This document shows, piece by piece, positions 1 to 14,200 of a stretch of 14,223 nt of DNA. The stretch is from a virus. The position numbers and the translations under genes are program-made. The stretch is from the UHGV virus genome UHGV-0168750; one strand, 5' to 3'. The notes below the pieces were generated by a model, which worked only from the letters and a program-made list of their open reading frames with translations, had not been told where the DNA came from and searched no databases. Every line of letters starts with the position of its first letter. Within the stretch, counting starts at the first letter, position 1.

Positions 1-48
1 TCTACACGTAAGGAGTCGTCGGCAGCGTCAGATGTGTATAAGAGACAG
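1..48. other. Library artefact: Illumina Nextera-type adapter (P5 tail TCTACAC, 8-nt index GTAAGGAG, read-1/Tn5 mosaic-end adapter)
   Basis: Positions 16-48 read TCGTCGGCAGCGTCAGATGTGTATAAGAGACAG, the Nextera read-1 transposase adapter; 1-7 TCTACAC is the 3' end of the P5 primer and 8-15 GTAAGGAG sits where the i5 index belongs (from memory this is index 505). Exact string match read directly. Confidence 0.9.
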
Positions 49-49
49 G

Positions 50-280
50 CTTATTATTTATACAGCTGAGGAAACACACTGGCTCGGGTTGCTAGACGGT
101 AAATTTGAATCTCGTATATTGAATAAAAACACGATTTGGGCAACGGGCTCAGGTCAAGCTTTTGCTCGTGCAGCCTGGGCAACAGGTATAAGCGAAAAGA
201 ACATTATTCCATTAGTAGGATCAATTGATACCGCCACATCGGAAACGTATGACTTATTTTACAGGAAGCACTTACGATGA
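50..280 (+). CDS. Hypothetical protein, 5'-truncated at the adapter/contig boundary (C-terminal ~76 aa only)
   Basis: Open frame running out of the adapter to TGA at 278-280; the first six codons of the ORF-track call (32-49) are adapter sequence. Stop overlaps the next start (ATGA). Contains a GSGxAFARAA motif. Confidence 0.45.
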   Translation, partial: LIIYTAEETHWLGLLDGKFESRILNKNTIWATGSGQAFARAAWATGISEKNIIPLVGSIDTATSETYDLFYRKHLR

Positions 281-798
281 AGATAAACGCAGTTTTAATT
301 GGCGATGAAATTTACGTTAATACAAAAACGCAATATTTGTATTACGAAGGCATTACTGTAATAGACGATTACTACGGTAAATACGGTTGGTGGATTCCGT
401 CCCCTAATTCTTTACGGTTAGAAGAAGCATTAACTGCCGAAGAGAACAATCTGGAAAAGGAATGGAGTTATATCAGTTCCGTCATTGACGTCAGCGGTCG
501 AATTAAAGATGTCTACTGGGCTAAGGAATCAGGCTGGCGTGTTACACTTCACCAATCTGCACCAGTAAGACTGCTGTACGACCACTCGGACACATCGGAG
601 TTAGCGTTTACCATTGAGACGCTCTCGCTACGTAAAGATTTAGATAACGTGGGTAAAGGGAAGTGGTCTATTGAACGCGTGGAGGAGATTCTCAGTCACT
701 TTAAAGCCAACAACAAATTTAAACGTTGGTGTACATTACCTGAGTTAGTAGAAGAGTTGAAAAAGCGGGATTGCAAACCGCTACCTTTTAACCCGTAG
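277..798 (+). CDS. Hypothetical protein (173 aa)
   Basis: ATG at 277 overlaps the upstream stop (ATGA); uninterrupted 173-codon frame; co-directional operon context. No motif recognised. Confidence 0.6.
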   Translation: MKINAVLIGDEIYVNTKTQYLYYEGITVIDDYYGKYGWWIPSPNSLRLEEALTAEENNLEKEWSYISSVIDVSGRIKDVYWAKESGWRVTLHQSAPVRLLYDHSDTSELAFTIETLSLRKDLDNVGKGKWSIERVEEILSHFKANNKFKRWCTLPELVEELKKRDCKPLPFNP

Positions 799-843
799 TC
801 TTTTTTACAACTGCGGCTATTTTAATGATTAGGAGAAAAGAAA

Positions 844-1308
844 ATGAAATGTTTTGAATCTAAAGAAATTGTTGAGTTGTTTAAACAGCGTGAGAAAACC
901 GCTTTCCGTGACCTGTACGATTCTGATTATCGCCCACTGTTTGCGGTATTGTTGAAACTGGATAAAGAACCCGAAATCGCATTAGCAGAGGTACAGCACC
1001 ACCACGTCAGTTTCGTATTAACCGAAAACATGAGCCGGTGGGTAGATGCTATGCTGATCCGTATTGGGCTCTTGGAAACGCCACACCGTTGGGAAGTGGT
1101 TATTCAGAAATCATTATTCCCACGTGAAGACATTTTCAACAAATATCGTCCGAAACAGTATTACAACCACGACGGGTCGCCAAAACGTGCTTTCCTGGCA
1201 CCGCAACACTTCGTAACCTACGTAACATTGCGTTACAAAGACACCGTGGTGCCGTTTGACACCTACCTGGAAATGCGTGAGATAATTTTAGGGAAGAATC
1301 CGTCATGA
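844..1308 (+). CDS. Hypothetical protein (154 aa)
   Basis: AGGAG at 831-835, 8 nt upstream of ATG 844; stop overlaps the next start (ATGA at 1305-1308). Confidence 0.65.
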   Translation: MKCFESKEIVELFKQREKTAFRDLYDSDYRPLFAVLLKLDKEPEIALAEVQHHHVSFVLTENMSRWVDAMLIRIGLLETPHRWEVVIQKSLFPREDIFNKYRPKQYYNHDGSPKRAFLAPQHFVTYVTLRYKDTVVPFDTYLEMREIILGKNPS

Positions 1309-1787
1309 TTCAATTTTCTGTTGACTCAGAAAGACTGGCGTCGTTTAAAGAGCGTGCTCAGTCTGCAACTAAAAACGGTTACATTGAGAAAGGTGTTCGT
1401 GATACTTGTAAACTAATCAACGACCATCCACATCTGGCAACAATGTGGAGTTGTGAAGGTCACGGTATGTATTCCAAGTCGCCAGGAAATCTGCATATCG
1501 TTTTTGCAGTACATGCCCTCGGGAATCAAATTCCGATGCAGGTTATGTCCGAGCTTGCAAAATCCGATCTTCCCAATTTCTGGAATCTTAGTTTGTGTCG
1601 TCTTTATCTACCCGATGAATATACAGATTTGGTATATCTTGAACCTGATTACGGGTTAAATACCGACGACACTTCTTACTGGGCTTGGAAAGTCGGATAC
1701 ATGTGTCTGATTAATCGTCCCGCATTAGTCGAAACACGTCAAGCACTTTATAAAGCATTTCACACTGTATTAGTTGAGAATAAATAA
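1305..1787 (+). CDS. Hypothetical protein (160 aa)
   Basis: ATG overlapping the upstream stop; stop TAA overlaps the next ATG (TAATG at 1785-1789). Confidence 0.6.
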   Translation: MIQFSVDSERLASFKERAQSATKNGYIEKGVRDTCKLINDHPHLATMWSCEGHGMYSKSPGNLHIVFAVHALGNQIPMQVMSELAKSDLPNFWNLSLCRLYLPDEYTDLVYLEPDYGLNTDDTSYWAWKVGYMCLINRPALVETRQALYKAFHTVLVENK

Positions 1788-2479
1788 TGGCTACCAAACA
1801 AAAGAAACCTCGTAACAAAAAGTATAACCCGAAAGCAGCAGCTAACCGTACCGCACACACCATCGCTGAAAACGCATTAAACCGCATTACTTTTGTCGGT
1901 AGCTCGATTCGCCCGATCGGTCCGTACGCGGGCCGTGGTTTCCAGTTTACAACCTCACCGCGTATGCGTATGGCGGCCACTGATATGCTAATCGGCGGTT
2001 TGTTTGACGAGCCGCGTAACTGGAAGCTCTGGGTTGCCCATCTGTACGAAACTGACAATGGCGTTCAAGCAGAAACCATCGTAGCAACTCTTGATGACTA
2101 TACGTTGAGTGATTTCTGTCAGCACGGTGATAAAATCATTAAGTCACTCCGCGAGACAGAAGAAAACTACTTTGGTTATGCTTTTGTTGCAGCACCAAAC
2201 GAACGTTATGATTTCGACCAGGGAGAAGAACGCTTACTGGAAAACTTCATGCATTCTGGACTGTTAGACAAATCCTTACACCTACCTGAAGAAGAACTGA
2301 TGGTTACGCGTAAGGATATGGTAACGTTACTGTTAGCCGATCGTGGTCGTTTTGATATCACTGAATCGCATGTACGTAAAGTACAGAAACTCGTGGATAA
2401 GGTAGACGAAACTGACCTGGACACTAGCGAAGTGGCAACCCGTATCCAATCGGTGGTCAATCAGGAAGAGGATTATTAA
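1787..2479 (+). CDS. Hypothetical protein (230 aa) with a basic Lys/Arg-rich N-terminus and an acidic C-terminus
   Basis: Long uninterrupted frame; N-terminus MATKQKKPRNKKYNPK; TAATG coupling to the upstream gene. Confidence 0.65.
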   Translation: MATKQKKPRNKKYNPKAAANRTAHTIAENALNRITFVGSSIRPIGPYAGRGFQFTTSPRMRMAATDMLIGGLFDEPRNWKLWVAHLYETDNGVQAETIVATLDDYTLSDFCQHGDKIIKSLRETEENYFGYAFVAAPNERYDFDQGEERLLENFMHSGLLDKSLHLPEEELMVTRKDMVTLLLADRGRFDITESHVRKVQKLVDKVDETDLDTSEVATRIQSVVNQEEDY

Positions 2480-2481
2480 AC

Positions 2482-3003
2482 GTGATAGCGAGACTTGCGA
2501 GTTGGTTTAAGCAACGTCGGGCAAAGGCGGTCGAATGGCCGCCTATTACGCACGATGAAAAGGTGGTTGCTTTTCTGAACTATAACAAAGACTTGAAGAG
2601 ATTGGGCGAAATAATGCGCCTAAAGGAAACCCAAGTCTTTGCTAAGATTTCAAGTAGTGCTTTACGTAAACAAGTATTTCCCCACCTATCCTTTTCAGGG
2701 CAAGTTTATGCAATAACCGCAGAGAAATTTTTATCGATGGCGGGCAATGAAACCCCACGCATACGGTTCTCGGCTACAGATTCATCTGATGCGGTCGGTA
2801 CAGTTGATTTCGGACGATTCTATCGATGCATTAAAGACGTGGGCCATATACATGTTAAACGGGTATCAGAAACATCTGTAGTGATTTATCACCGTACTGA
2901 GAATGATTTGTTAGGGCGTGTTATAACGTTAACGAATTTACATAGTTTTTACGTTGATTTACTCACTGAGTTTTATCCAGAACCATGGTGTTTTATACGA
3001 TGA
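2482..3003 (+). CDS. Hypothetical protein (173 aa), GTG start
   Basis: GTG at 2482 lies 2 nt after the upstream TAA, preceded by AGGAAGAGGA; stop TGA overlaps the next ATG (ATGA at 3000-3003). Confidence 0.55.
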   Translation: MIARLASWFKQRRAKAVEWPPITHDEKVVAFLNYNKDLKRLGEIMRLKETQVFAKISSSALRKQVFPHLSFSGQVYAITAEKFLSMAGNETPRIRFSATDSSDAVGTVDFGRFYRCIKDVGHIHVKRVSETSVVIYHRTENDLLGRVITLTNLHSFYVDLLTEFYPEPWCFIR

Positions 3004-3212
3004 ACAGAGCTAATGGATATATCATCTCGGCAATTGTTTCAACCGTGCTGATTGTGACGATGTTGATGTTTTATGTCCGTGTGTCAGATGACTCACGCAA
3101 AGAAAGCCTTTATCGTGAATGTATGTCGGGAACGACTGTGGACAATCCGCGTTACAGCGAATTGGTAATGGCGTGCACAGAACATGCTAAGCTAATGGGA
3201 GATGGCCGATGA
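3000..3212 (+). CDS. Small membrane protein (70 aa) with one N-terminal transmembrane helix
   Basis: ATG at 3000 in an ATGA overlap; hydrophobic stretch YIISAIVSTVLIVTMLMFYV followed by a charged tail. The ORF-track start at 2985 is rejected because it overlaps the upstream gene. Confidence 0.5.
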   Translation: MNRANGYIISAIVSTVLIVTMLMFYVRVSDDSRKESLYRECMSGTTVDNPRYSELVMACTEHAKLMGDGR

Positions 3213-3406
3213 AGATTTGGTTACCGATTGTAGCTTTTGTTCTTATTGCGGGCGCACTAGCAAGTGCCGAGTGTGACAATCGTGTTTTAGAAAAGAAAAG
3301 CGAATTGTATCAGGATTGCATAAAGGACTACACACCCGGTACAGAGCTTCATGCGCAGGCTGTAAAAAGTTGTGCGCTGATGGCTGAATCGCAGACTCGT
3401 TCCTAA
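3209..3406 (+). CDS. Small secreted or periplasmic Cys-containing protein (65 aa) with a signal-peptide-like N-terminus
   Basis: MKIWLPIVAFVLIAGALASA then ECDN; four Cys in the mature part; ATGA overlap with the upstream gene. No canonical lipobox. Confidence 0.5.
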   Translation: MKIWLPIVAFVLIAGALASAECDNRVLEKKSELYQDCIKDYTPGTELHAQAVKSCALMAESQTRS

Positions 3407-3780
3407 TGCGTATCTGGACGTTACAGCTTGCTAAGTGGCGGTTAGCGAAATCGAAGGGATTTTACGCGGTAGATATTACAGTCAAATCAGGGCGAAAGGA
3501 ACTCGCCCCCGACTGGGATTTCTTAATGGCGTATAAAAACTCCACAAAGGACGCAACTGCTGAAGCCGACTATACCGTAAAGTATCTTTACAAGCTTGAA
3601 CGATTACTGGACTCAGATGCCGAAGTGTTGGTATCGTTACTTAGGCACGAAGACCTGGTGCTGATGTGTTATTGTCCCGCAGGTAAGTTTTGCCATCGAC
3701 ACTTACTGGCTAAGAAACTTCAAGACGTCGGAATGATGTTCGGTTTTGACGTTGAGTTATGTGGAGAATTAACGGACTGA
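3406..3780 (+). CDS. Hypothetical protein (124 aa) with a C-x-C-x6-CHR motif; possibly DUF488/YeaO-like
   Basis: TAATG coupling; motif LVLMCYCPAGKFCHRHLLAKKL near the C-terminus. Family assignment is from memory of the DUF488 pattern, not a search. Confidence 0.5.
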   Translation: MRIWTLQLAKWRLAKSKGFYAVDITVKSGRKELAPDWDFLMAYKNSTKDATAEADYTVKYLYKLERLLDSDAEVLVSLLRHEDLVLMCYCPAGKFCHRHLLAKKLQDVGMMFGFDVELCGELTD

Positions 3781-3807
3781 TTCGATTTTTAGATGTAAAA
3801 TGACCTT

Positions 3808-3852
3808 CTACCGCCCGATTCTATGGGCGGTAGGTGTTTTTATTTTTTTTTT
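3808..3852 (+). terminator. Rho-independent terminator closing the upstream small-gene block
   Basis: Perfect 9-bp stem CTACCGCCC (3808-3816) / GGGCGGTAG (3825-3833), 8-nt loop, then a T-rich run (3835-3852) including ten consecutive T. Confidence 0.65.
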
Positions 3853-3868
3853 GATCTGGGAGGTTTTA

Positions 3869-4429
3869 GTGGCCACTTACGTACCTGATTTAAGCCTGAC
3901 CTCAGCCGAATTAGTGGTCGCTTTAATCAACCACGATAACGGTTCACAGTTGTCTTTAAGAGAAATTCGTATTAGCAACACTGTGGTAAACCCGTCTCCG
4001 ACCACTTCGCGTCGTAACACACTGTCAGAGATTACAAAAATCAGGAAACCTGACGGTGCTTCTGTGGTTGTTTATTACGATCGCTTAGATGCGGAAGAAG
4101 TATTAGCTTCTGAACCTATTTTGATTTCGTTAGACGGTACTGAAGATAACATTCGTGACATTTTAGATGTTGTAAATGAATTCTGCGGAACGAACTTACA
4201 GCCTGACGATTTGCGCGCTTCAGATATCACATTAGGTAACGATCCCATTGCTGTTAACGTTGCTGACGATTCTCCTGCGTGGATGAATGCGTTTATGGTG
4301 ACGTTATTCGATACAACCGAACGAGCATTAGCCAACGAAGAAGACGCGATCTTCTGTATTGGCGATGTTGCTGTTCTTACATTTGAGGTTCCAGATGGCG
4401 ACTCAGCTGAAGAAAACCCGACTACATGA
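3869..4429 (+). CDS. P1a: conserved small protein (186 aa), paralogue of 13013-13528; likely tail-fibre-associated
   Basis: GTG at 3869 preceded by GGGAGG (3858-3863). N-terminus VATYVPDLSLTS..LINHD matches MGQFVPDLSLTS..LINHD of the paralogue; shared motifs KIRxP, YYxRLxAE, CG(T/S)NLQP(D/E)DL, VLTF. The ORF-track start at 3800 lies inside the terminator hairpin. Confidence 0.6.
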   Translation: MATYVPDLSLTSAELVVALINHDNGSQLSLREIRISNTVVNPSPTTSRRNTLSEITKIRKPDGASVVVYYDRLDAEEVLASEPILISLDGTEDNIRDILDVVNEFCGTNLQPDDLRASDITLGNDPIAVNVADDSPAWMNAFMVTLFDTTERALANEEDAIFCIGDVAVLTFEVPDGDSAEENPTT

Positions 4430-4856
4430 ACTTGACAGTTTTACCGGTGACCCACAGGGCGGGGTATTACTGTTTAGTAAAGAGAATAAAGAATACAAAA
4501 TTAACGCCGAACAGTTACTACCAACGAACACCGTAACTACGGTAAACGGTGCTGACGGCACGGCAACGATTAATCCAAATAACGTTACTGACGTTATACT
4601 GGTATTAAACGATCCTGCGACAACCTTAACTATCTCCCCGTTAACGGAAGCCAAAGCAAACGTTCGGGTTGAGTTTTATTTAACCGTTAAGCAAGGAACA
4701 GGGGCGAATAAGATTACTTGGCCGGATAATGTAAAATGGCCACATAACGCAACTCCTGTTTTGTCCTTTACAGCTAATGCGGAAGATACATTAGCGTTCT
4801 ATACGCTTGATGGTGGGACTACGTGGAAAGGTTCCCTCATCGCCGCAGGTTACTAA
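4395..4856 (+). CDS. P2a: small protein (153 aa) carrying the shared N-terminal module (putative virion-docking domain)
   Basis: ATG at 4395 preceded by GAGGT; residues 5-40 KKTRLHELDSFTGDPQGGVLLFSKENKEYKINAEQL align with the N-termini of the long fibre and of 13528-14148. Overlaps P1a by 35 nt. Confidence 0.6.
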   Translation: MATQLKKTRLHELDSFTGDPQGGVLLFSKENKEYKINAEQLLPTNTVTTVNGADGTATINPNNVTDVILVLNDPATTLTISPLTEAKANVRVEFYLTVKQGTGANKITWPDNVKWPHNATPVLSFTANAEDTLAFYTLDGGTTWKGSLIAAGY

Positions 4857-4858
4857 CG

Positions 4859-7800
4859 ATGAGAAAAACTTTTCAACGACACGCTATTTCTTACGCACTG
4901 TCGTTAGCCTACGGGCACCAAACATTCGTTACTCGAAATACGGGGACAACGAATGATGCTCACACAGACCACTTTATTCAGAATGAAGAAGGGGTCTTAG
5001 CTAATAACCGTCACTTTATTGCAGATACGATGGCGGAGTACCAGCCCAATGGTGATGCAACGACCGAAGGTCAATCGCTACACATCCTTGGGTACTGTCA
5101 TCTGTATATTGCAACTAAAGACCCAAGATGGTTAGATGCAGCAAAACATGCATGGGATGCTTACACTACCTACTTTTACGGTGGGCAAGCTATTCCGACT
5201 ACACCTCAGCGTTTTATTTGTAACTGGTTAGTAAACGGAAAAGAGCCGGTACTCGCGCACTATCCGATACACCCAACAGAACCTACACACGGTGGTTACA
5301 AATGTGTACCCGTCAGGTTCACTAACGGTCAGTGCAAAATACCACACGGTGCACCGTTCTGGGGTGAATATCTAGACACCTTTACGTTTGCTCATCGTGG
5401 TCATCCAACGTGGGGTGCTATTAATGCGGACGTACAGATTATCAAGGAGGATAAAGAAGGGTTAATCGATTGGGATGCTGTGTTAACGCATCTGATTACG
5501 AATCCCGATAAACCTTACGAAACGAAAGCCTGGGTTGACTGGCCAACGTTACTGAACAACGCTACTGGCTACACACCGCTGTGGGGTGGTTCTTCATCAA
5601 AAGGACCTAAGCACGATGTCGACTGGATAGTTGCCTGGACAGGTAACAAGATTCAGGATAGCGAGATTATTGAGTCGGGCTTAGCAGACGCCGATAAAGG
5701 TACCGTACAGTTAAAAGATACTCAATTAAACGGTGTCTATTTAATTAACTACGCGGTAAAACTTCCTGTCGAGCACGGCGGTTATGCTTTTAAACGTAAT
5801 GAACCGTGGCACAACCGACCCGTACATACACCATTCTTAGGCTCTAAGAACCAGTACGGTAATGCAGCAGATGCAGAACTGTGGTTTATCGACGCTTGTT
5901 ATTTGCTGTGGCGAATTACAGGTGAAGATAAATACAAACACGCGTTAGACTGTGCGTTTTACACCGCACACGAGTATACGTATATTGATGCCGCCGACAA
6001 GTTCTTTAGACGTTCTACGGCCGCAGAAACACCGTTTACCGATGGTATCTCTTACGACTTCGATTATCCCGATACCGTGAGCGTCGAATACGGTCGCGAT
6101 ACGAATGGCGATATCACTATCCACGCACCTAAAGCTGTACAACACTTTATGGAGCAGCAAGCAGTACGTTTTAGAATCAATAAAGATTCTAAGCTCAGAG
6201 TGACGTATGGTGGTGTGTGTAAAAACGGTGACCCGGTATATTGTCGTGCGATGGTTGACATTAATCCGGTAAAGGCTGACACGGAAGAAGTGAACTGGTA
6301 CGGTTTAACGTTACCCCGTTCTACTTCGTTAAGCGTTAAGCAATACGATATTGACTTAGGTCAACTTGCACGGATTACTACCCCAGAAGGGGAAGACTAT
6401 TTAATCGCAGATGCACGAGCCTGCTCGGATTACGGCGGTTGTACGTGGGAAGAACGGTTTGAAGACAATATCTACGATGGTCGTGCGGGTACCATTGTCG
6501 AAGCTTTATTTCCGAATGACGATGCGGGCTTTATTATCGGTTTCTGGTTAACCGAAGCGGAGAAGGTTAAGCCGGTTTCTATCGTTTATCGTGCGGACGC
6601 AGACTTTAACCTACGTTTAGTTGATTCTGATAACTGGCGTTGGTGGTGGATGTTACCGAACACGAACAACGAATGGCGACAAGTAACCTTAAATTTAGAG
6701 GACGCGACGTTATCGGGATACCAACCTGACCACACTGACGCTGATCCTGAGCCTTCAGCACCTAACTTCGATAAGGTTGACCAGGTTACTATCCTGCCCG
6801 ATTCTGCTGTAGACCACGCTCACTTTGCTTACTATTGCGTGAATGATGTCCCGCCGGTCTTTAATAAAGATGATGGGTATATCCTCACGTTCCGTATCGC
6901 TTTACGCGGTGGGAGTGAGTTTGACGCAAAAGTCGGCGATTGTACCATCAAAGACTATCGTTTAGACTCACTGGCGTATTGTCCTGGGACGATTCCGTTC
7001 TCGAATATTTATTCAGAAGGGTCTGAACAGCTCGGTGCATGGCACGGTATGCCCTACCCAGGTTATCAATATCCGTTTATGTACGCAATACACAAAGATG
7101 ACCGGTATAAACTGTGGTTAGAGAACCAAATACAGTTTATGCATGACTCGCAAATTGCGTATCAAAAACAGATTGGTGAGTTAGGGCCAGGTTGTGCAGC
7201 CTATATCTGGAATCGTTGGGATAACTACAGTTACGGAAAACCAGATACCTGGACAACATTCCATTGGGGTGACGATCACCCCTGGGCAGGCTACCAACCG
7301 CGCGCATTTCATGCTGCCTGTCGGTGTTGGTACGAGTTAACGTTACGAGGCAAATCAGTTCCTGAGACGTTAACAACCTATATCGAGAATTGGGTGAATT
7401 GGTTAGGTGGGTTTGTGGATAGGTTTAATGGCCACACGCCAAACGAGTTCCCCACAGCACCGAATAAGCCGGTTTGGGTAGAAGACGACTTTACAGCGCA
7501 TATGTGTGCGCTGTGGTTAGCGGGTTGTTGCTGGGCGTTACTTGCCGGTGCGACGAACCCTAACTACGAAAAAGTAGTTAATGCCGCAATTAAAGAGCTC
7601 GGTGACGGGTTTACGATTACGTCAATTCCAAACAAACCCATTAATGGTGCTTGGTCGCCTGCGCCACGAGAGTCTTCGGATAACGGAATGGCTTTTGGTT
7701 TCTATACCGGTGAAGCATTACGTGCTTTAGGACTTTATATCACTTATAAAACTTACGGAGCCAACACAAACATTTATCATGACTTAGCAATCCCAGAACA

Positions 7801-7864
7801 CGAAAGCGCGGTATTAGACGTCACCATCGCCTTAGAAGATGACGCATTAAAACCGGAATTATAA
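4859..7864 (+). CDS. Large Trp/Tyr-rich protein (1001 aa); putative virion-associated carbohydrate-active enzyme (depolymerase-like)
   Basis: ATG at 4859 is 3 nt after the P2a stop, in frame with the ORF-track GTG at 4823. Helical segments such as ADAELWFIDACYLLWRITGEDKYKHALDCAFYTAHEY and AHMCALWLAGCCWALLAGATNPNYEKVVNAAIKELGDG recall alpha/alpha-barrel glycosidases or lyases. Existence of the gene is secure; the function is inferred. Confidence 0.7.
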   Translation: MRKTFQRHAISYALSLAYGHQTFVTRNTGTTNDAHTDHFIQNEEGVLANNRHFIADTMAEYQPNGDATTEGQSLHILGYCHLYIATKDPRWLDAAKHAWDAYTTYFYGGQAIPTTPQRFICNWLVNGKEPVLAHYPIHPTEPTHGGYKCVPVRFTNGQCKIPHGAPFWGEYLDTFTFAHRGHPTWGAINADVQIIKEDKEGLIDWDAVLTHLITNPDKPYETKAWVDWPTLLNNATGYTPLWGGSSSKGPKHDVDWIVAWTGNKIQDSEIIESGLADADKGTVQLKDTQLNGVYLINYAVKLPVEHGGYAFKRNEPWHNRPVHTPFLGSKNQYGNAADAELWFIDACYLLWRITGEDKYKHALDCAFYTAHEYTYIDAADKFFRRSTAAETPFTDGISYDFDYPDTVSVEYGRDTNGDITIHAPKAVQHFMEQQAVRFRINKDSKLRVTYGGVCKNGDPVYCRAMVDINPVKADTEEVNWYGLTLPRSTSLSVKQYDIDLGQLARITTPEGEDYLIADARACSDYGGCTWEERFEDNIYDGRAGTIVEALFPNDDAGFIIGFWLTEAEKVKPVSIVYRADADFNLRLVDSDNWRWWWMLPNTNNEWRQVTLNLEDATLSGYQPDHTDADPEPSAPNFDKVDQVTILPDSAVDHAHFAYYCVNDVPPVFNKDDGYILTFRIALRGGSEFDAKVGDCTIKDYRLDSLAYCPGTIPFSNIYSEGSEQLGAWHGMPYPGYQYPFMYAIHKDDRYKLWLENQIQFMHDSQIAYQKQIGELGPGCAAYIWNRWDNYSYGKPDTWTTFHWGDDHPWAGYQPRAFHAACRCWYELTLRGKSVPETLTTYIENWVNWLGGFVDRFNGHTPNEFPTAPNKPVWVEDDFTAHMCALWLAGCCWALLAGATNPNYEKVVNAAIKELGDGFTITSIPNKPINGAWSPAPRESSDNGMAFGFYTGEALRALGLYITYKTYGANTNIYHDLAIPEHESAVLDVTIALEDDALKPEL

Positions 7865-7883
7865 CCCGCTTATAAAAAAAAAT

Positions 7884-7905
7884 GGGGGAGCATTCTACCT
7901 CCCCC
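7884..7905 (+). promoter_or_regulatory. GC-rich hairpin in the intergenic region upstream of the long tail-fibre gene
   Basis: GGGGGAG (7884-7890) / CTCCCCC (7899-7905) with an 8-nt loop, preceded by TATAAAAAAAAA (7871-7882); only a short T run follows, so a weak terminator or RNA stability/processing element. Confidence 0.3.
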
Positions 7906-7938
7906 GATCTTTTAGCTCCCGATAGAGAATTAAATATC

Positions 7939-10900
7939 ATGGCTAAAGCGGTCAAGAAAATACGTTTGCACGATTTACGTCCTTACGCCGGTGATATCGG
8001 TGAAGGCGTTTTGCTTTTTTCGAAAGACGAAAAAGATTATCAATTACCAGTCCGTGAGATCGTTGCTGATATTGACACCGTAAGGAACGCGGTTGCTGAT
8101 GCACAGTCCGCAGCAGCACAATCACAACAGTCGGCCACAGAAGCAACACAAGCAAAAGATTTAGCGGAAACCGCGAAACAGCAGGTTGACACTACCGCAT
8201 CAACTGTTAGCGAACAAGCACAAACGGTAGCAACAAAAGCGGCTGAGGTCGGCACAAAACATGCCGAAGTTTTAGCAGCAAAAACAGCAGTAGACACTGT
8301 TTTACAGTCGGTGAACGAAAAGGCTCAGGCCGTCTCTGCGAGTGAAAAAGCAGTCACAACAGCCGCCGCCGACGTAACGAAGAAAGCAGAAACTGTTACC
8401 CAGCAAGCTGGTCAAGTTCAACAGTCAGTCACTAGCATCACTGAAATTGCGGCAACTGTTGAAGCCAGTAAAGGCGCTGTGGAAGCTACTGCTGTACAAG
8501 TTACGAAAGACAAAGAATCCGCAGAAGGGGCAGCGACGCGTTCAGAAGCTGCTGCACAACGTGCTGAAGACATCGCTGCACAGGGGTTAATTGACGCCAC
8601 TACAGCTAACAAGGGTATCGTTAAACTTAATAATACCCTAACCAGTGATTCAGTAACGGAAGCGGCTACACCGTCGACAGTGAAGCAACTGAACGACGAG
8701 CTGCAATTAAAAGCCAACAAGCACTCACCGAACTTTACGGGGCAGCCGTCAGCACCAACACCTCCGAAAAATTCTAATGATACCAGTATTTCGACTACTG
8801 CGTGGGTACGTGCAGCTATCGCTGAATTAGTCGGTTCTTCTCCTGAAACGTTAGATACCTTAGCGGAATTAGCCGAAGCGCTGGGTAATGATCCTAACTT
8901 CGCAACAACGATTACTGAGAAACTTGCGCAGAAGCAACCTATCAGTCCGTTACTCACTGCAATCGCTGCGGTTACGACAGCGGCAAATAAACTCCCGTAT
9001 TTCACCGGCACTAATAAAGTCGGGTTAGCCGATTTTACAGAAACCGCCAGAACGTTATTAGCGAAAGGTTCAACAACCGAAATCATTGAGTTTTTAGGAT
9101 TAAAAGCCACCGTAGATAAAGCGAATGGCGCATTACAGAAAAACTCTAATGGTGCTGATATTCCAGATAAAGAAACATTTGCCCGCAATATTGGTCTGTC
9201 TCCTGACACTTATCTGCGTTTCCGTGGTGAAATGCCAACTGATGCGGATATCAACACTTTCGCCCCAGATACCAACTACACGGGTACGTGGTCGAAAGCA
9301 ACCTCGACCAACGCGACAATGGCAAAACACTTTCCAGAAGACGGTGCGGTCGGTTATCTGGAAGTGTATAAAGCGGGTAACTATAGCGGTGCACAACGTT
9401 TTACCTGTCGTAATGGTAACGTCTATAACCGTATGTTGTCAGGTGTGTGGAACGGCACTAATGGCCCGTGGTCACCGTGGAGAATGGTAACTACCGGTGT
9501 ACGTCCACTGGCTACATCAATTGACCTGAACTCCTTAGGCGGTGCCGAACACATGGGTAACTGGCGAAACTCGTCCAGTTCGTTGGCTACCTTTGCTAAC
9601 CACTACCCGGAAGAGGGCGGTGCTGCTCAAGGTGTTTTGGAAGTCATGGAAGGCGGTCTTTACGGACGTTTACAACGTTACACTACTCGACGTGGTACGA
9701 TGTATGTTCGTGGTTTGACGGCGACGTGGGATTCTACTAATCCGCAATGGGAAGATTGGATTCAGGTAGGTTATCAAACCGACGGCGCGTATTACAAAGG
9801 AAACTTCGATAACCTGACTAAACCAGGTCGTTTCAGCGTCACTGGAGAAGCCACGAATGGTCCCCTTACAGGTCCTTCGGGTGAAACATTGTTGGGTGTC
9901 TGTGCAGTTACTGTACGTTTAGACGGTACAGGGATCGAACAAACCTACACCACGCACGGTACAGGTGCGGAGTACAAAGGTCGACGTTTCCACCGTATTC
10001 GTACGGGTAATGTCTGGACGCCGTGGCGCGAGATTTACGACTCGAACAGTTTAGCCATGTTGTTAGGGGTCGGCGGCGAACGTGCGAATGTTGATCCTTT
10101 AGACTGGCAAACCTACGACTTTAAACCGGGTGAATTAATCTGTACGCCACTTAATACCATGAAAAACATTCCTGCGGGAATGGATTGGGGTGTTATCGAC
10201 GGTAATTTAATTAACATCCTGGTTGGGCCATCTGATGGCGCTACGTCAGGTCGAAGTATGTTGGTTTGGCGTAGTACGGTGTCTACCGCCAACTATCGCT
10301 TCTTTGCAGTACGTATCGCCGGTGAGAAGGGTAGCCGTACGATTACGCCACGACAAATGCCTGTGTTGAATGCGGCGCACACTTGGACAGAGAAACAGAC
10401 CTTTGCAAAAGGCTTGTCGGGCGAATTAACCGGTAATGCTTCAACCGCAACCAAATTACAAACTGCCCGGAAAATCGGTGGCGTTGGGTTTGACGGTAGT
10501 GGTGATATTAACCTCCCAGGCGTAAACCAACAGGGTAATCAAAACACCACGGGTAATGCCGGGACAGCCACTAAACTTCAAACCGCCAGAAATATTAACG
10601 GCGTGAGATTCGACGGTTCTGGCGATATTAATATCAACACCCTGGTAGGTCGTGGTCGGGTTACAGCTCTAACCGGCTCAGCGAAAGGTACACCTGGTAT
10701 CCAGATGTACGAAGTTTACAATAACGGTTATCCGACCGCTTATGGTAACTTACTACATTTAGGTGGTTCTACAGCTGTAGGCGAAGGCGAACTGTTAATC
10801 GGTTGGTCAGGTACTAACGGCGCACACGCCCCAGTGTTTATCCGTAGTCGTCGCGACAATGCGGAAGCACCATGGTCGGACTGGGCACAGGTATACACCG

Positions 10901-12441
10901 CCCGCGATAGCATCCCAGGGGTAAACGCGACTGGTAATCAAGATACTACCGGTAACGCGGCTACCGCGACGAAGTTGAAAACCGCTCGCAAAATTGGCGG
11001 TGTGAGCTTTGATGGTACTGGGGATATCAATTTACCGGGGGTTAACCAGCAAGGCAACCAGAATACGACAGGTAATGCAGCAACCGCTACCAAGTTACAA
11101 ACCGCAAGAACCATCAATGGTGTTGCGTTTGACGGCACTAAAAACATCGAAATAACGGCTGAAAGTTTAAATCTTGGTCAAACCGTAGAATTGGCCGGTG
11201 GGTCATTGCAGAAAAACCAGAACGGCGCAGATATTCCTGATAAGGGTCGCTTCCTGAGTAACATTAATGTTTACAGCAAAGGCGAGGTGGATGAGAAAAA
11301 AGGAATGCGGCAGTACGTATTTAACGCGCCGTCTAATGCCGTTGGCGGAAAGTGGTATCCAGTTATTTTCCGGCGTTCCACTGGTAGCACCGGCGAACTG
11401 GCTTCCAGAGTAGTTATTACAACTACATCTGCCGGTGGCGATTACGCAATGAATAACTGCGAATTCAATGGAACGGTAATGGCGGGCGGTTGGACTGATC
11501 GCGGTTCATACGCAGCAGGGTATTTTTCGATATATCAGACTAATGAGCGCGCAATCCATTCCATTGTAACAGGTGTGAAAGATGATGATGTGTGCAGCGT
11601 TTTTTACGTCGAAGGTAGGGCTTTCCCTATTCGAGTTTTTGCCGAAGAAGGGTTATCGGTTAGTGTTCCGACCCAGAATTATACCGTCGGTCAAACAACC
11701 TATAAGTGGGGAGCAACTAATCCTGCGACAGAAAGCACGAACGCACAAACCATTTTGGATTTTAACAATGGACGAGGATTTTATTGTTCCCATTCAATAT
11801 TCGCTATTAATAGTATTTTAAGCGGTAATCTGGGTATCGGTACCGCGAATGCTTTAGGTGGGAATTCCATAGTTTTAGGGGATAATGACACCGGTCTTAA
11901 ACAGAATGGGGACGGTATTCTAGATGTCTATGCCAACGGTCGACATGTATACCGTTTTCAAAACGGCATTGCTATTGCTCTTTATGGTGTTCAGGCTGGT
12001 AACGGTAAAAAACTTTCGTTAACTAGCGCAAACAATTCCACGTTGAATGCGGGTCTTAACATTTGGGGTAACTCTTCGCGTCCAACTGTTGTAGAACTCG
12101 GTGATGACGCAGGCTGGCATTTTTATAGCCAACGAAACACCGACAACTCGATATCGTTCGCCGTTAATGGGCAAATTCAACCGGGAAACTGGAGTAATTT
12201 CGATTCCAGGTACCAAGCACGGTCAGGAGTTGTCCAGGATGTTCGTTTCGGTGGTCAAAGTTATCATAACCCCGGGAGTAATACGACCTCTTGGAATTTC
12301 TCCGCTCCAGGTGGTCATTGTCTTACTGGTATTTCTATATCGGATACTGGCAAAAACTCGGCAGATAACGTTAACGGTGTTTATTATCGCCCGCTACAAA
12401 AATTGGTTAATGGTACTTGGTACAACGTCGCGTCGGTATAG
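7939..12441 (+). CDS. Long tail fibre protein (1500 aa)
   Basis: N-terminal shared module [36 protein letters not shown]; Ala/Gln/Thr-rich coiled-coil-like region; tandem ~75-aa domains; four copies of the tail-fibre repeat TGNAxTATKLxTARxIxGVxFDGSGDI; C-terminal [13 protein letters not shown]-type motif; followed by a Tfa chaperone gene. The ORF-track start at 7882 lies inside the hairpin. Confidence 0.85.
9247..10038 (+). repeat. Three tandem ~75-aa domain repeats inside the fibre (a fourth diverged copy at about 10640-10897)
   Basis: Each unit ends in a Trp-rich motif: [38 protein letters not shown], and in the fourth copy [12 protein letters not shown]. Protein-level periodicity; the nucleotide sequences are diverged. 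Confidence 0.45.
10432..10636 (+). repeat. Pair of tail-fibre sequence repeats (~33 aa each) inside the fibre gene
   Basis: [69 protein letters not shown]; the T-A-T-K-L...FDGSxDI pattern is the classical phage tail-fibre repeat shared by T-even and lambdoid side fibres. Confidence 0.7.
10933..11154 (+). repeat. Second pair of tail-fibre sequence repeats
   Basis: [74 protein letters not shown]; same motif as 10432-10636 with many synonymous differences, so an old duplication. Confidence 0.7.
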
Positions 12442-12443
12442 TT

Positions 12444-12974
12444 ATGTTACATTTAAAAAATATTCGTTCAGGAAACCCTAAAACTCCCGAACAGTGGGAG
12501 CTTACCAAGCGCTTAGGCGTCATATGGCTTTACGATGAAACCGGAAAAAATTGGTATGAGGAGCAAAAGAATTTTCAAGCAGATACTATAAAATTCGGGT
12601 ACGATGCGGACGGCATCATACGTTGGAAGGTTAAAGACATAACGTCGATAAACCCTGACAGTTTAAGCGTTGTTGAAGTTCCCGACGTTATTATAAACCG
12701 TCGTGTCGAATGTAACGGCGAGTGGATGTTTAAAGACGGACGCGCAATCAAGCGGATTTATACGCCGGAGGAGCTGGTTCAACGTGCTGAATCTAAAAAA
12801 GCCGTATTGTTGTCCGAGGCAGAAACAGTCATTAAGCCGCTTGAGCGGGCTGTTAAGCTGAAAATCGCAACAGATCTCGAGCGGTTACGGCTGGAAGCCT
12901 GGGAGGGTTATACTGTAATGATCAGTCGCGTCGATACTAATAATCCCGTCTGGCCTGAAAAACCGCTAATATAA
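12444..12974 (+). CDS. tfa: Tail fibre assembly protein (Tfa-type chaperone, 176 aa)
   Basis: ATG 2 nt after the fibre stop. C-terminus [46 protein letters not shown] matches the conserved Tfa motif (lambda Tfa ends ...[48 protein letters not shown], from memory). The ORF-track start at 12417 overlaps the fibre gene and is rejected. Confidence 0.85.
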
Positions 12975-13012
12975 CCAGCTTGAAACTTCTCTGAAAATTG
13001 GAGGTAAGCTTT

Positions 13013-13528
13013 ATGGGGCAATTCGTGCCGGATTTGTCACTGACCTCACCTAACATGGTTATTTCGTTGATCAATCACGACCTTCAGCTTGATCTGCAAG
13101 AAACCGATGTTGAGTTTAGCGAACTAAAATCTAGCGACACGATGGATCGTGACACCACTGCTGTTGTAAAGATTAGACGTCCTGGTAACAGAACGTTACA
13201 AATCTATTACAACCGTTTAACCGCAGAACGTTGGTTAAACCAGCAACCTATTCTGGTGCAAGTAACTGGCGAGGGGTTTAGCACACACGATTTAATCGAC
13301 GCGATTAACGCAGCCTGTGGCAGTAACCTGCAACCCGAAGATCTTCAGGACGATTCATTTACAGTAGGAAAAGACGCTGTAACGTTACAGGTATCACCTA
13401 ACTCCCTAAGTTATAAAGGCCAATTCTCTGTTTTGGTTTTTGGTAACGGCGAAGAAGCCGCGGTAACAAAAGACGACAACTTAATTGTTACCGCAGATAA
13501 TCGTGTCTTAACCTTCGGAGGTCAATAA
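13013..13528 (+). CDS. P1b: conserved small protein (171 aa), paralogue of 3869-4429
   Basis: ATG at 13013 preceded by TGGAGG; N-terminus MGQFVPDLSLTS..LINHD and internal motifs shared with P1a; stop TAA overlaps the next ATG (TAATG at 13526-13530). Confidence 0.65.
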   Translation: MGQFVPDLSLTSPNMVISLINHDLQLDLQETDVEFSELKSSDTMDRDTTAVVKIRRPGNRTLQIYYNRLTAERWLNQQPILVQVTGEGFSTHDLIDAINAACGSNLQPEDLQDDSFTVGKDAVTLQVSPNSLSYKGQFSVLVFGNGEEAAVTKDDNLIVTADNRVLTFGGQ

Positions 13529-14148
13529 TGGCTGAATTGGTAGGAAAGGTACGTGTTCACGAACTGCCGTCGCTTTCAGAAGACATCACGGGTGTAGTAG
13601 TCTTAGCGTCTAAGGAACAAACCGAATATCAACTCCCGATTGAGAATTTAGGGGGTGGCGAGGTTACAGTGAGTCCGTCAGCGAATAACATCCTTAAGTC
13701 TAACAGCGATGGACTGTTTGTTGACGGCGCACATCCTATTATACCGAAAATGGATGCAAAAACCTTATCGGGAAATATGGTGGTAGAAAAAACGCTGACA
13801 GGTGGCGCGGTAATCTGCAAAACAATGGTTGACGTTAATAATAGGCTGGGGATTTCGCAATTATCTGGAGTGTCAATTTATAGCCAGTGCCTGCTGGAAA
13901 ATAAATTGGTTTACCTGGCAGAAGACGGCAGTATTATTGATGCGTACTTCTACATCAGTAATACAAAAACCACTGCCAGTACAATAACGCACACTATTCG
14001 GGTTGTGTTAGCGAAGATACCTTCTAAAGTTATTGATATCACCGATTTGTCTGAAACTGAGGTGCAATACCAGGATGGTAATCTACCTGTTAAGATCGTT
14101 ATTAAACATCTTGTGGGTACAACACTTTCTCAGAATGGGATGAAATAG
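13528..14148 (+). CDS. P2b: protein (206 aa) carrying the shared N-terminal module; putative second short fibre or receptor-binding protein
   Basis: Residues 6-41 GKVRVHELPSLSEDITGVVVLASKEQTEYQLPIENL align with the N-termini of P2a and the long fibre; the C-terminal ~165 aa are unrelated to both. Confidence 0.65.
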   Translation: MAELVGKVRVHELPSLSEDITGVVVLASKEQTEYQLPIENLGGGEVTVSPSANNILKSNSDGLFVDGAHPIIPKMDAKTLSGNMVVEKTLTGGAVICKTMVDVNNRLGISQLSGVSIYSQCLLENKLVYLAEDGSIIDAYFYISNTKTTASTITHTIRVVLAKIPSKVIDITDLSETEVQYQDGNLPVKIVIKHLVGTTLSQNGMK

Positions 14149-14152
14149 TTTT

Positions 14153-14200
14153 AGGTAGTAGGGGCTAAGCCCCTACTACCTTTTTCTTTTTTTATTTTTT
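14153..14200 (+). terminator. Strong rho-independent terminator at the end of the fibre operon
   Basis: Perfect 13-bp stem AGGTAGTAGGGGC (14153-14165) / GCCCCTACTACCT (14169-14181) with a 3-nt loop, then TTTTTCTTTTTTTATTTTTT; begins 5 nt after the P2b stop. Confidence 0.8.

Follow-up and report, generated by a model that had tools for sequence, protein, structure and literature searches.

We analysed a stretch of 14,223 nucleotides (nt) from the UHGV virus genome UHGV-0168750 (hereafter the window, by which the whole of this stretch is meant), in which all sizeable open reading frames (ORFs) lie on the plus strand. Very probably, the product of the gene at 7939-12441 is a trimeric long tail fibre by which a Seoul-like jumbo phage binds its receptor and which ends in a tip that can be swapped. 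Table 1 lists the modules of this fibre and the features around it. The product of the preceding ORF (4823-7864; 1001 to 1013 amino acids [aa]) shares 74 to 80% identity with the tail-associated proteins SPN3US gp124 and Asesino gp141, and thus the window corresponds to the tail region of an SPN3US-related jumbo phage; judged by such homologies, the virus is a Seoul-like (SPN3US-related, chimallin-type) jumbo phage. The original prediction, made from the letters of the window alone, had described the fibre as a mosaic made up of a docking module, a coiled-coil-like rod, tandem domains ending in tryptophan motifs, two pairs of tail-fibre repeats, and a C terminus resembling T-even fibres combined with a lambda/P2-type chaperone.

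Table 1 Features of the fibre locus (nucleotide positions in the window; residues of the fibre unless a length is given)
Feature	Position	Strand	Residues or length	Evidence or remarks
Long tail fibre gene	7939..12441	+	1500 aa plus stop	PHROG tail-fibre families match; P0001 99% identical over the full length
GC-rich hairpin GGGGGAG-loop-CTCCCCC, then T-run	7883..7906	+		Separates the 1001-aa tail protein gene from the fibre gene; terminator-like on both strands
Docking module, lineage-specific	7939..8073	+	1-45	Shared with two short-protein ORFs, SPN3US gp123 and Asesino gp140
Heptad coiled-coil rod	8071..8598	+	45-220	Periodicity, composition
Phage_fiber_2 repeat, then P2 gpH/Mu S-like shaft	8599..9243	+	221-262, then 263-435	PF03406 E 3.3e-9; 52-56% identity to P2-like gpH, Goslar gp90
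K1, K2, K3: three tandem knob-like domains ending WxxW	9244..10041 (K1 9244-9492; K2 9523-9771; K3 9802-10041)	+	K1 436-518; K2 529-611; K3 622-701	
K4, beta-rich, without WxxW	10084..10356	+	716-806	pLDDT 82-92; block with K1-K3 at 100% coverage in P2-like phage gpH
First pair of 40-aa repeats	10429..10668	+		Form TGNAxTATKLxTARxIxGVxFDG
K5, fourth WxxW domain (WSDW, aa 979)	10669..10899	+	about 911-987	Between the repeat pairs; pLDDT 81-91
Second pair of 40-aa repeats	10948..11187	+		Fourth unit holds the left tip-cassette crossover, about 11078-11105
Module of ca. 210 aa, independently exchanged	11188..11823	+	1084-1295	77% identity to Peduovirus P22H4 gpH and HdSG1 fibre; unrelated sequence in its place in L006/P0008
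Conserved 38-aa linker GNLGIGT...DVYAN, second junction	11824..11937	+	1296-1333	Matches first residues of S16 gp37 chain 6F45
Distal shaft with gp34-like motif, then predicted Mu S/P2 gpH-type receptor-binding tip	11938..12438	+		5YVQ_A E 1.5e-16; 9CUY E 1e-14
Caudo_TAP tail fibre assembly chaperone	12444..12974	+	176 aa	PF02413 E 2.6e-29, above the curated cut-off
Exchangeable cassette: fibre C terminus, chaperone, intergenic spacer	11079..12999	+		L003 homology lost here; S74-type end and two gp38-like genes instead
Short fibre paralogue, same docking module	4395..4856	+	153 aa	Homologue of SPN3US gp123
Second short protein, same docking module	13528..14148	+	206 aa	Preceded by DUF7941 gene (about 13013-13528)

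A single ORF is open over 7882-12441, with candidate starts at 7882 (ATG) and 7939. We preferred the second, which the original prediction had also used, given that the ATG at 7882 falls within the hairpin, that the paralogues start with MA, and that most relatives are called at 1500 aa; residue numbers are therefore counted from nt 7939. The N-terminal docking module can be aligned with the products of the two short ORFs and with SPN3US gp123 and Asesino gp140 at 28 to 41% identity (z-scores of the local alignments, 15 to 22; the observed score was reached in none of 1000 shuffles), in agreement with the docking module of the earlier reading. The common motif of ca. 40 aa, MA..KK.RLHEL...GD...GVLLFSK...EY, contains 11 positions that are invariant across the five proteins and places the fibre among those sharing the Seoul-like docking mode. 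In the explanation that we propose, this module of ca. 45 aa would plug the long fibre into the baseplate, the same module being used by the two short fibres nearby. The pair formed by a DUF7941 gene and a gene for a short docking-module protein is present twice (3800-4429/4395-4856 and 12998-13528/13528-14148), while the long fibre gene is preceded by the gene of the 1001-aa tail protein and not by DUF7941; a third DUF7941 gene is found further downstream in the relative L005 (L and P numbers are our labels for the sequences compared). The duplicated pairs suggest several fibre sets with one mode of attachment.

The docking module is followed by a segment (aa 51-221) in which Ala, Gln, and Thr make up 51% of the residues and proline is absent. 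Its hydrophobic periodicity has a sharp peak at 3.5 residues; the power there is 4.10, and the highest value obtained from 500 shuffles was 2.53. Composition and period agree with the Ala/Gln/Thr-rich rod that had been placed at about 8090-8600, and a hendecad rod was rejected, the period being 3.5 and not 3.67 residues. Among NCBIfam models, the fibre returned SMC/Rad50 matches below threshold only, which is consistent with a coiled coil. If it forms one continuous alpha-helical coiled coil, the rod would be ca. 26 nm long, and this heptad segment of 175 aa would keep the remaining fibre away from the baseplate.

When the fibre was searched segment by segment, each segment had a different best relative. 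For aa 1-225, none was found in the phage collection by tblastn. Residues 221-440 were closest to P2-like gpH, a Mu-like Yersinia phage, and Goslar (52 to 56% identity); residues 436-815 to gpH of P2-like phages (peduoviruses), at full coverage (61 to 63%); the repeats-K5-repeats block (aa 816-1075) to a P1-like S protein, Goslar gp90, and the SSU5 fibre (74 to 76%); residues 1076-1295 to Peduovirus P22H4 and siphovirus HdSG1 (77%); and residues 1296-1500 to Mu-like phages and P2 gpH (58 to 61%). No single known fibre outside the lineage matched over the full length, and none of the records in the phage collection covered 80% of the protein, so that the mosaic character proposed for it is well founded. 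BLASTP of the fibre against itself returned the identity match only, and domain profiles were used instead; a search of the representative library was dominated by proteins that have only the 40-aa repeats in common with it. The G+C content was 0.50 to 0.51 across 9500-11000, compared with about 0.44 in the flanks, which fits a foreign, Escherichia coli-like origin of the central fibre body.

Beyond aa 221, the closest systems are, on these alignments, P2 gpH/gpG, Mu S/U, and P1 S/U. Collinearity with various P2-like gpH proteins extends over the shaft (aa 221-435), K1 to K4 (61 to 63%), the 210-aa module (aa 1084-1295), the linker, and the tip, and in both cases a chaperone of ca. 175 aa directly follows. 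However, no single P2-like gpH has all the modules of the window fibre, whose N terminus consists of the Seoul-like docking module and the 175-aa coiled coil. A P2-type N-terminal attachment domain was not found in it; there was no N-terminal Pfam match, and the alignment with P2 gpH starts only at aa 219. P2 itself is a 33-kb temperate phage, in contrast to the 222-kb jumbo phage of nucleus-forming type considered here. The protein would therefore work like a P2/Mu-type fibre and yet not be a straightforward member of that group, its N-terminal attachment domain having been replaced by docking module and coiled coil. A precedent is provided by Goslar, an E. coli jumbo chimallivirus with a long P1 S-like fibre (gp90) followed by a tail fibre assembly chaperone (TAP; gp89). 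Identity to gp90 reaches 53% in the shaft plus K1 and 73% in the repeats-K5-repeats block, whereas tip and chaperone are unrelated (no BLAST match past aa 1079 and none to the TAP), and the N terminus of gp90 (MSTAYITVVTDKGAERI...), which we take to resemble that of P2 gpH, is not similar to docking module or coiled coil of the Seoul type.

In the body of the fibre, PF03406 (a 41-aa repeat) was the sole Pfam match, and the shaft aligns with residues 84-188 of Mu S (5YVQ_A). Repeat and shaft (aa 221-435) had not been named in the original prediction, nor had the 210-aa module (aa 1084-1295) or the 38-aa linker (aa 1296-1333). A 21-residue motif beginning TV(D/E) is present in the shaft at 9109-9170 and again at 11182-11243 (direct repeat D3). 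For the region that follows, the original prediction had four or five tandem domains of ca. 75 aa ending in Trp-x-Pro/Asp-Trp. Four WxxW motifs are indeed present (aa 511, 604, 693, and 979), but the spacing gives a unit of ca. 90 aa, and only three of the domains stand in tandem (K1 to K3), followed by the unrelated K4 and a separated K5. K1 is clearly homologous to K2 (hhalign probability, 99.4%; E, 2e-21), and K3 and K5 have a weak sequence link to these two that is confined to the C-terminal strand (iterated hidden Markov models [HMMs]; E, 0.02 to 0.08). Neither hhalign nor iterated HMMs detected any sequence similarity of K4 to K1, K2, K3, or K5. In P2-like gpH, K4 always accompanies K1 to K3. 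The two pairs of tail-fibre repeats were recovered as four 40-aa units starting at nt 10429, 10549, 10948, and 11068 (aa 831, 871, 1004, and 1044), with a spacing of 120 nt within pairs. In some unrelated fibres (P0123, P0137, P0165, and P0204), the unit formed by a 40-aa repeat and a K5-type domain occurs twice per protein; i.e., it is itself duplicated as a module.

Structure prediction with AlphaFold2, carried out on the monomer only, points to knob-like folds. A first model (aa 425-1000), built from a shallow, lineage-only alignment, had a mean predicted local distance difference test (pLDDT) score of 48.5. In K1, K2, and K3 alike it predicted five strands, whose spacing was much the same from domain to domain. 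A second one (aa 612-1000), built from diverse homologue segments, reached a mean of 80, with K3, K4, and K5 at 76 to 92. Foldseek searches with both models retrieved the phi812 receptor-binding protein, the R1/R2 pyocin fibres, the Phi11 and 80alpha receptor-binding proteins, and T4 gp34. These same structures carry "Knob" domains, described as five- or six-stranded antiparallel sheets in tandem (PMC6116203). The models thus predict domains of the kind present in the R-type pyocin, Phi11 gp45, phage K gp144, and T4 gp34, that is, tandem sheets of five or six strands and ca. 80 to 90 aa. Like the window fibre, the R1/R2 pyocin fibres (PDB 6CL5, 6CL6, and 6CU2) are P2 related and have a downstream chaperone, although sequence identity is only 9 to 19%, and they have two knobs and a lectin-like foot, whereas the window fibre has a Mu S-type tip and four or five globular domains, with 40-aa repeats interleaved.

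The C terminus of the fibre (aa 1296-1500) is rich in Gly and Asn (27%, versus 18% in the whole protein) and has a 13-residue motif at aa 1388, whose surrounding stretch of 35 residues aligns to T4 gp34 (E, 5e-8; ca. 50 aa). Both the composition and the T-even resemblance had been recognized beforehand. What could not be upheld is the combination deduced from them, a T-even-type tip with a lambda/P2-type chaperone. The T4 gp34 match is a shaft motif of a proximal half-fibre; gp34 (PDB 4UXE, 5NXF, and 5NXH), one of four proteins that make up the T4 fibre, forms the half next to the baseplate and is not the part that binds the receptor. The similarity is significant but local and is not diagnostic, near-identical motifs being present in the gpH of a P2-like prophage and in a P1-like Sv segment. 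Over its last ca. 100 to 160 aa, the fibre matches Mu S (5YVQ_A) and the short fibre 9CUY. The last 205 aa are 57.6% identical to P2 gpH at 100% coverage, as expected of a Mu S/P2 gpH-type tip, and aa 1075-1500 (426 aa) form a single block with 79.8% identity to gpH from the PEC301 prophage (P2-like; E. coli), in which the gpH gene is followed by a homologous chaperone gene. The chaperone gene of the window begins 3 nt past the fibre stop codon, and its product is homologous over its full length to Mu U, the chaperone that was co-crystallized with the Mu S tip (5YVQ_B, residues 1-174; E, 9.5e-71), and has 63 to 66% identity to P1 U and P2 G. Because the tip is homologous to Mu S/P2 gpH and the chaperone to Mu U, and because the 426-aa block comes with its own chaperone in the prophage, the two are by homology a matched P2/Mu-type pair and not a T-even/P2 hybrid.

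For the same reasons, we consider it very unlikely that the protein is a true T-even-type fibre, i.e., a gp34/gp37-like fusion with a T4/T2-like tip in which Caudo_TAP replaces gp57A/gp38. Besides the gp34 motif, this view could draw on a match to the N-terminal end of an S16 gp37 fragment, on the similarity of the knob region to the gp34 structure, and on the S74 ends and gp38-like genes of the fibres of close relatives. Nevertheless, the gp37 match (E, 3e-4) is the sole one and is confined to 34 aa of the linker, paired with the beginning of chain 6F45, the C-terminal end aligns to Mu S and 9CUY and not to gp37, and the long block shared with P2-like gpH covers the whole distal part. No homologues of gp34 partners or adhesins (gp35, gp36, gp37 equivalents, gp38, or gp57A) were among the Pfam and PHROG matches of the window.

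We then compared the fibre with those of its own lineage. A protein search returned one fibre with 99% identity and seven with 84 to 92% over the full length, while most relatives share only the first 71 to 90%. The 121 lineage fibres have 3 to 6 of the 40-aa repeat units each and fall into five tip classes: two S74-type classes (72 and 36 fibres), the P2/Mu-type class (10, including the window fibre), a class of 2, and one collar-type fibre. Tip and partner gene vary together. S74-type tips are accompanied by two gp38-like genes (PF05268/PF21721), P2/Mu-type tips by the 176-aa Caudo_TAP, and the collar-type tip by a 302-aa double TAP. S74 is a chaperone domain that cleaves itself off in known fibres. 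In relatives with S74 ends (L003, 13371-14717; L008, 4947-6249), the gp38-like genes are consecutive and encode 260 aa (Gp38_N plus GP38) and 167 aa (Gp38_N only), so that the T2/S16-type adhesin arrangement also occurs in these chimallin-type jumbo phages.

The borders of the exchange can be placed at nucleotide level. DNA homology of the window to L003, L006, and L009 stops at 11105. L003 matches the window perfectly up to 11078, differs from it by synonymous changes only through a 12-residue core of the fourth repeat, and becomes homologous again exactly at the ribosome-binding site GGAGGTAA, at 13000. L006 has the same tip and another middle module, its homology resuming at 11823, and L008 has the same middle module and another tip, its homology ending at 11936; the 38-aa linker between these two positions is therefore a second junction. 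The conserved part of the fibre has also undergone exchange: K3 is present as three alleles (see below), and block-wise DNA identities to different relatives are incongruent. Thus, the distal fibre and its partner gene are exchanged together as a cassette within the lineage, which supports the link that had been made between the mosaic and host-range switching. We propose that homologous recombination at short conserved sequences (the 13-residue repeat core, the GNLGIGT...DVYAN linker, and the ribosome-binding site of the next gene) would swap the distal fibre and partner gene as one cassette and that single knob domains are also traded among members of the lineage.

Two other origins of this pattern were considered. 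Reads of a P2- or P1-like prophage in the same isolate could have been joined to the jumbo phage contig at a shared 40-aa repeat, making the P2-like distal part an assembly artefact. The adapter at nt 16-48 (see below) marks the window as a raw short-read contig, and prophage fibres also contain the repeat in which the left junction falls. However, the same full-length architecture is present, at 84 to 99% protein identity, in at least nine other cluster representatives from different samples, one of them on a contig of 222,841 bp; the right border returns to jumbo phage genes in frame at the ribosome-binding site; the G+C content of the cassette agrees with that of the phage backbone; and the cassette DNA is only 82 to 84% identical to any E. 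coli prophage and hence was not assembled from such reads. We regard an artefact as extremely improbable. The chance that the alternative tips arise by site-specific DNA inversion, as with Cin/Gin of P1, P7, and Mu, and not by cassette replacement appears to be practically negligible. Positions 11071-11237 are 80 to 82% identical to the Sc/Sv junction region of P7 and of P1-like invertible C segments, and the best plasmid match lies in an invertible segment beside a recombinase gene. Unlike Mu and P1, however, the window contains neither an invertible segment nor a recombinase gene, the downstream genes are all on the plus strand with no inverted second tip or chaperone, and the sole inverted repeats are two pairs of 16 to 18 nt, a size expected by chance. 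A Cin/Gin-type segment within the window was accordingly rejected. The resemblance to these phages otherwise includes the tip, the chaperone, and the P1-type S protein, whose repeats-K5-repeats block is 61 to 75% identical; Mu S differs in that its similarity to the tip is confined to the last ca. 100 aa and in that the window fibre is three times longer.

Under cassette exchange in a docked fibre, then, everything beyond the coiled coil would be of P2/P1/Mu type, with a shaft, an array of knobs and 40-aa repeats, and a Mu S/P2 gpH-type tip that Caudo_TAP would fold and to which it may remain bound, as U does on Mu S. Mu and P1 use the core of lipopolysaccharide (LPS) as their receptor. P2 binds LPS via gpH, and its gpG is needed for fibre assembly (PMC9594776). 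By analogy with these three phages, our best guess for the receptor of the window fibre is the LPS core. The tip may not be the sole or even the main determinant of specificity, though. It is possible, and we put it forward tentatively, that variable knobs, K3 especially, bind saccharides laterally, with the tip in a secondary or orienting role. K3 exists in three allele classes in the lineage (at least 95%, ca. 75%, and 37% identity), while its neighbours, K4 among them, stay at 81 to 100%. One of the most variable regions of R-type pyocin fibres is their second knob, which has been proposed as a binding site ca. 100 Å from the tip (PMC6116203). On the other hand, no binding site could be identified in the models, and the co-variation of tip and partner gene marks the tip as a strongly exchanged unit. 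Both roles are mutually compatible, and knobs acting as additional sites are plausible.

Several points weigh against reading the gene as a receptor-binding fibre with a swappable tip. The modules, their homologies, the cassette boundaries, and the co-variation are observations, but the presence of the fibre in the virion, its trimeric state, its site of attachment, its need for the chaperone, and its binding to LPS are all predictions. With a tip ca. 58% identical to P2 gpH and a Mu S match limited to the last ca. 100 residues, the receptor is not readable from the sequence. The assignment of K1 and K2 as knobs comes from the low-confidence first model (pLDDT of 52 to 79 in those domains), and K4 is without an assigned fold. 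Finally, no long fibre is found downstream of gp124 in SPN3US or of gp141 in Asesino. Even so, we consider the reading very probable.

Regarding the phage itself, megablast of the fibre and of the whole window against the phage collection returned short fibre fragments only, with no sequenced phage close in DNA. Phages of this kind occur mostly as contigs of ca. 222 kb; those of the relatives, ca. 220 to 226 kb long, came from isolates of E. coli, Salmonella, and Shigella whose genomes had been assembled. One of them, NZ_CP173450.1 (L010), is a circular replicon of 221,873 bp in a complete E. coli genome, with 81.6% identity over positions 46-11148 of the window. It was deposited as a "plasmid" of a urinary E. 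coli isolate, which fits the reported persistent carriage of Seoul-like jumbo phages. These findings match the lineage of "Seoul-like persistent jumbo phages" described in a preprint (bioRxiv 10.1101/2024.12.31.630880); the term "tail fiber" occurs nowhere in that text, and our literature searches found no description of the fibre at 7939-12441.

As for the rest of the window, the product of 4823-7864 (phrog_2871) has no Pfam or NCBIfam match, and some related phage records label it a glycosyl hydrolase; it may be a depolymerase or a tail-spike-like enzyme whose gene directly precedes that of the fibre. The start of the window (1-49) is occupied by an Illumina Nextera transposase adapter (TCGTCGGCAGCGTCAGATGTGTATAAGAGACAG at 16-48). 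It accounts for megablast matches of 92 to 95% to the ends of unrelated phage records. The first ORF (32-280) therefore begins within the adapter, and the window is probably a whole short-read contig. Between the gene for a 124-aa protein and the DUF7941 gene, relatives (L003, 4466-4903, and L006) have an extra insert of ca. 440 bp with a gene for 144 aa, absent from the window (at 3780/3781) and from L005. At the other end, a strong hairpin resembling an intrinsic terminator (GGTAGTAGGGGCTAAGCCCCTACTACC, then a T-run) at 14154-14200, 3' of the gene for the 206-aa protein, closes the fibre gene cluster.

Mosaic fibres, crossovers at conserved motifs, and the co-transfer of tip and chaperone have long been established by the classical comparisons of P2, P1, Mu, lambda, and T-even phages. 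Newer examples of tip/chaperone co-transfer include PMC10579305. In this light, the window fibre is a clear but ordinary case of tail fibre mosaicism, with nothing new in kind. Its value lies in the natural graft points, located at nucleotide level in a persistent jumbo phage lineage (the repeat core, the linker, and the downstream ribosome-binding site), and in a single scaffold that carries TAP-dependent, S74-plus-gp38, and collar-type tips interchangeably. Such a map can serve as a design guide for fibre retargeting, in the manner of the P2:S16 chimeras that have been engineered (PMC9594776). In addition, it puts on record host-range modules of the Seoul-like "persistent" jumbo phages and raises the question of the route by which genes are exchanged between a phage of nucleus-forming type and the temperate phages of its host.

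A broader possibility, which we offer as speculative, is that the fibre scaffold is a universal socket for three mechanistically different systems of tip maturation (the P2/Mu tip with TAP, the S74 end with gp38-like adhesin genes, and the collar with a double TAP), all grafted at the same two points. The donors would be phages that infect the same hosts, temperate ones related to P2 and P1 as well as T-even-like ones. If so, genes of resident prophages would reach phages thought to be genetically isolated in the phage nucleus, and the tip class would both follow and make possible the jumps of these phages between E. coli, Salmonella, and Shigella while an infection persists.

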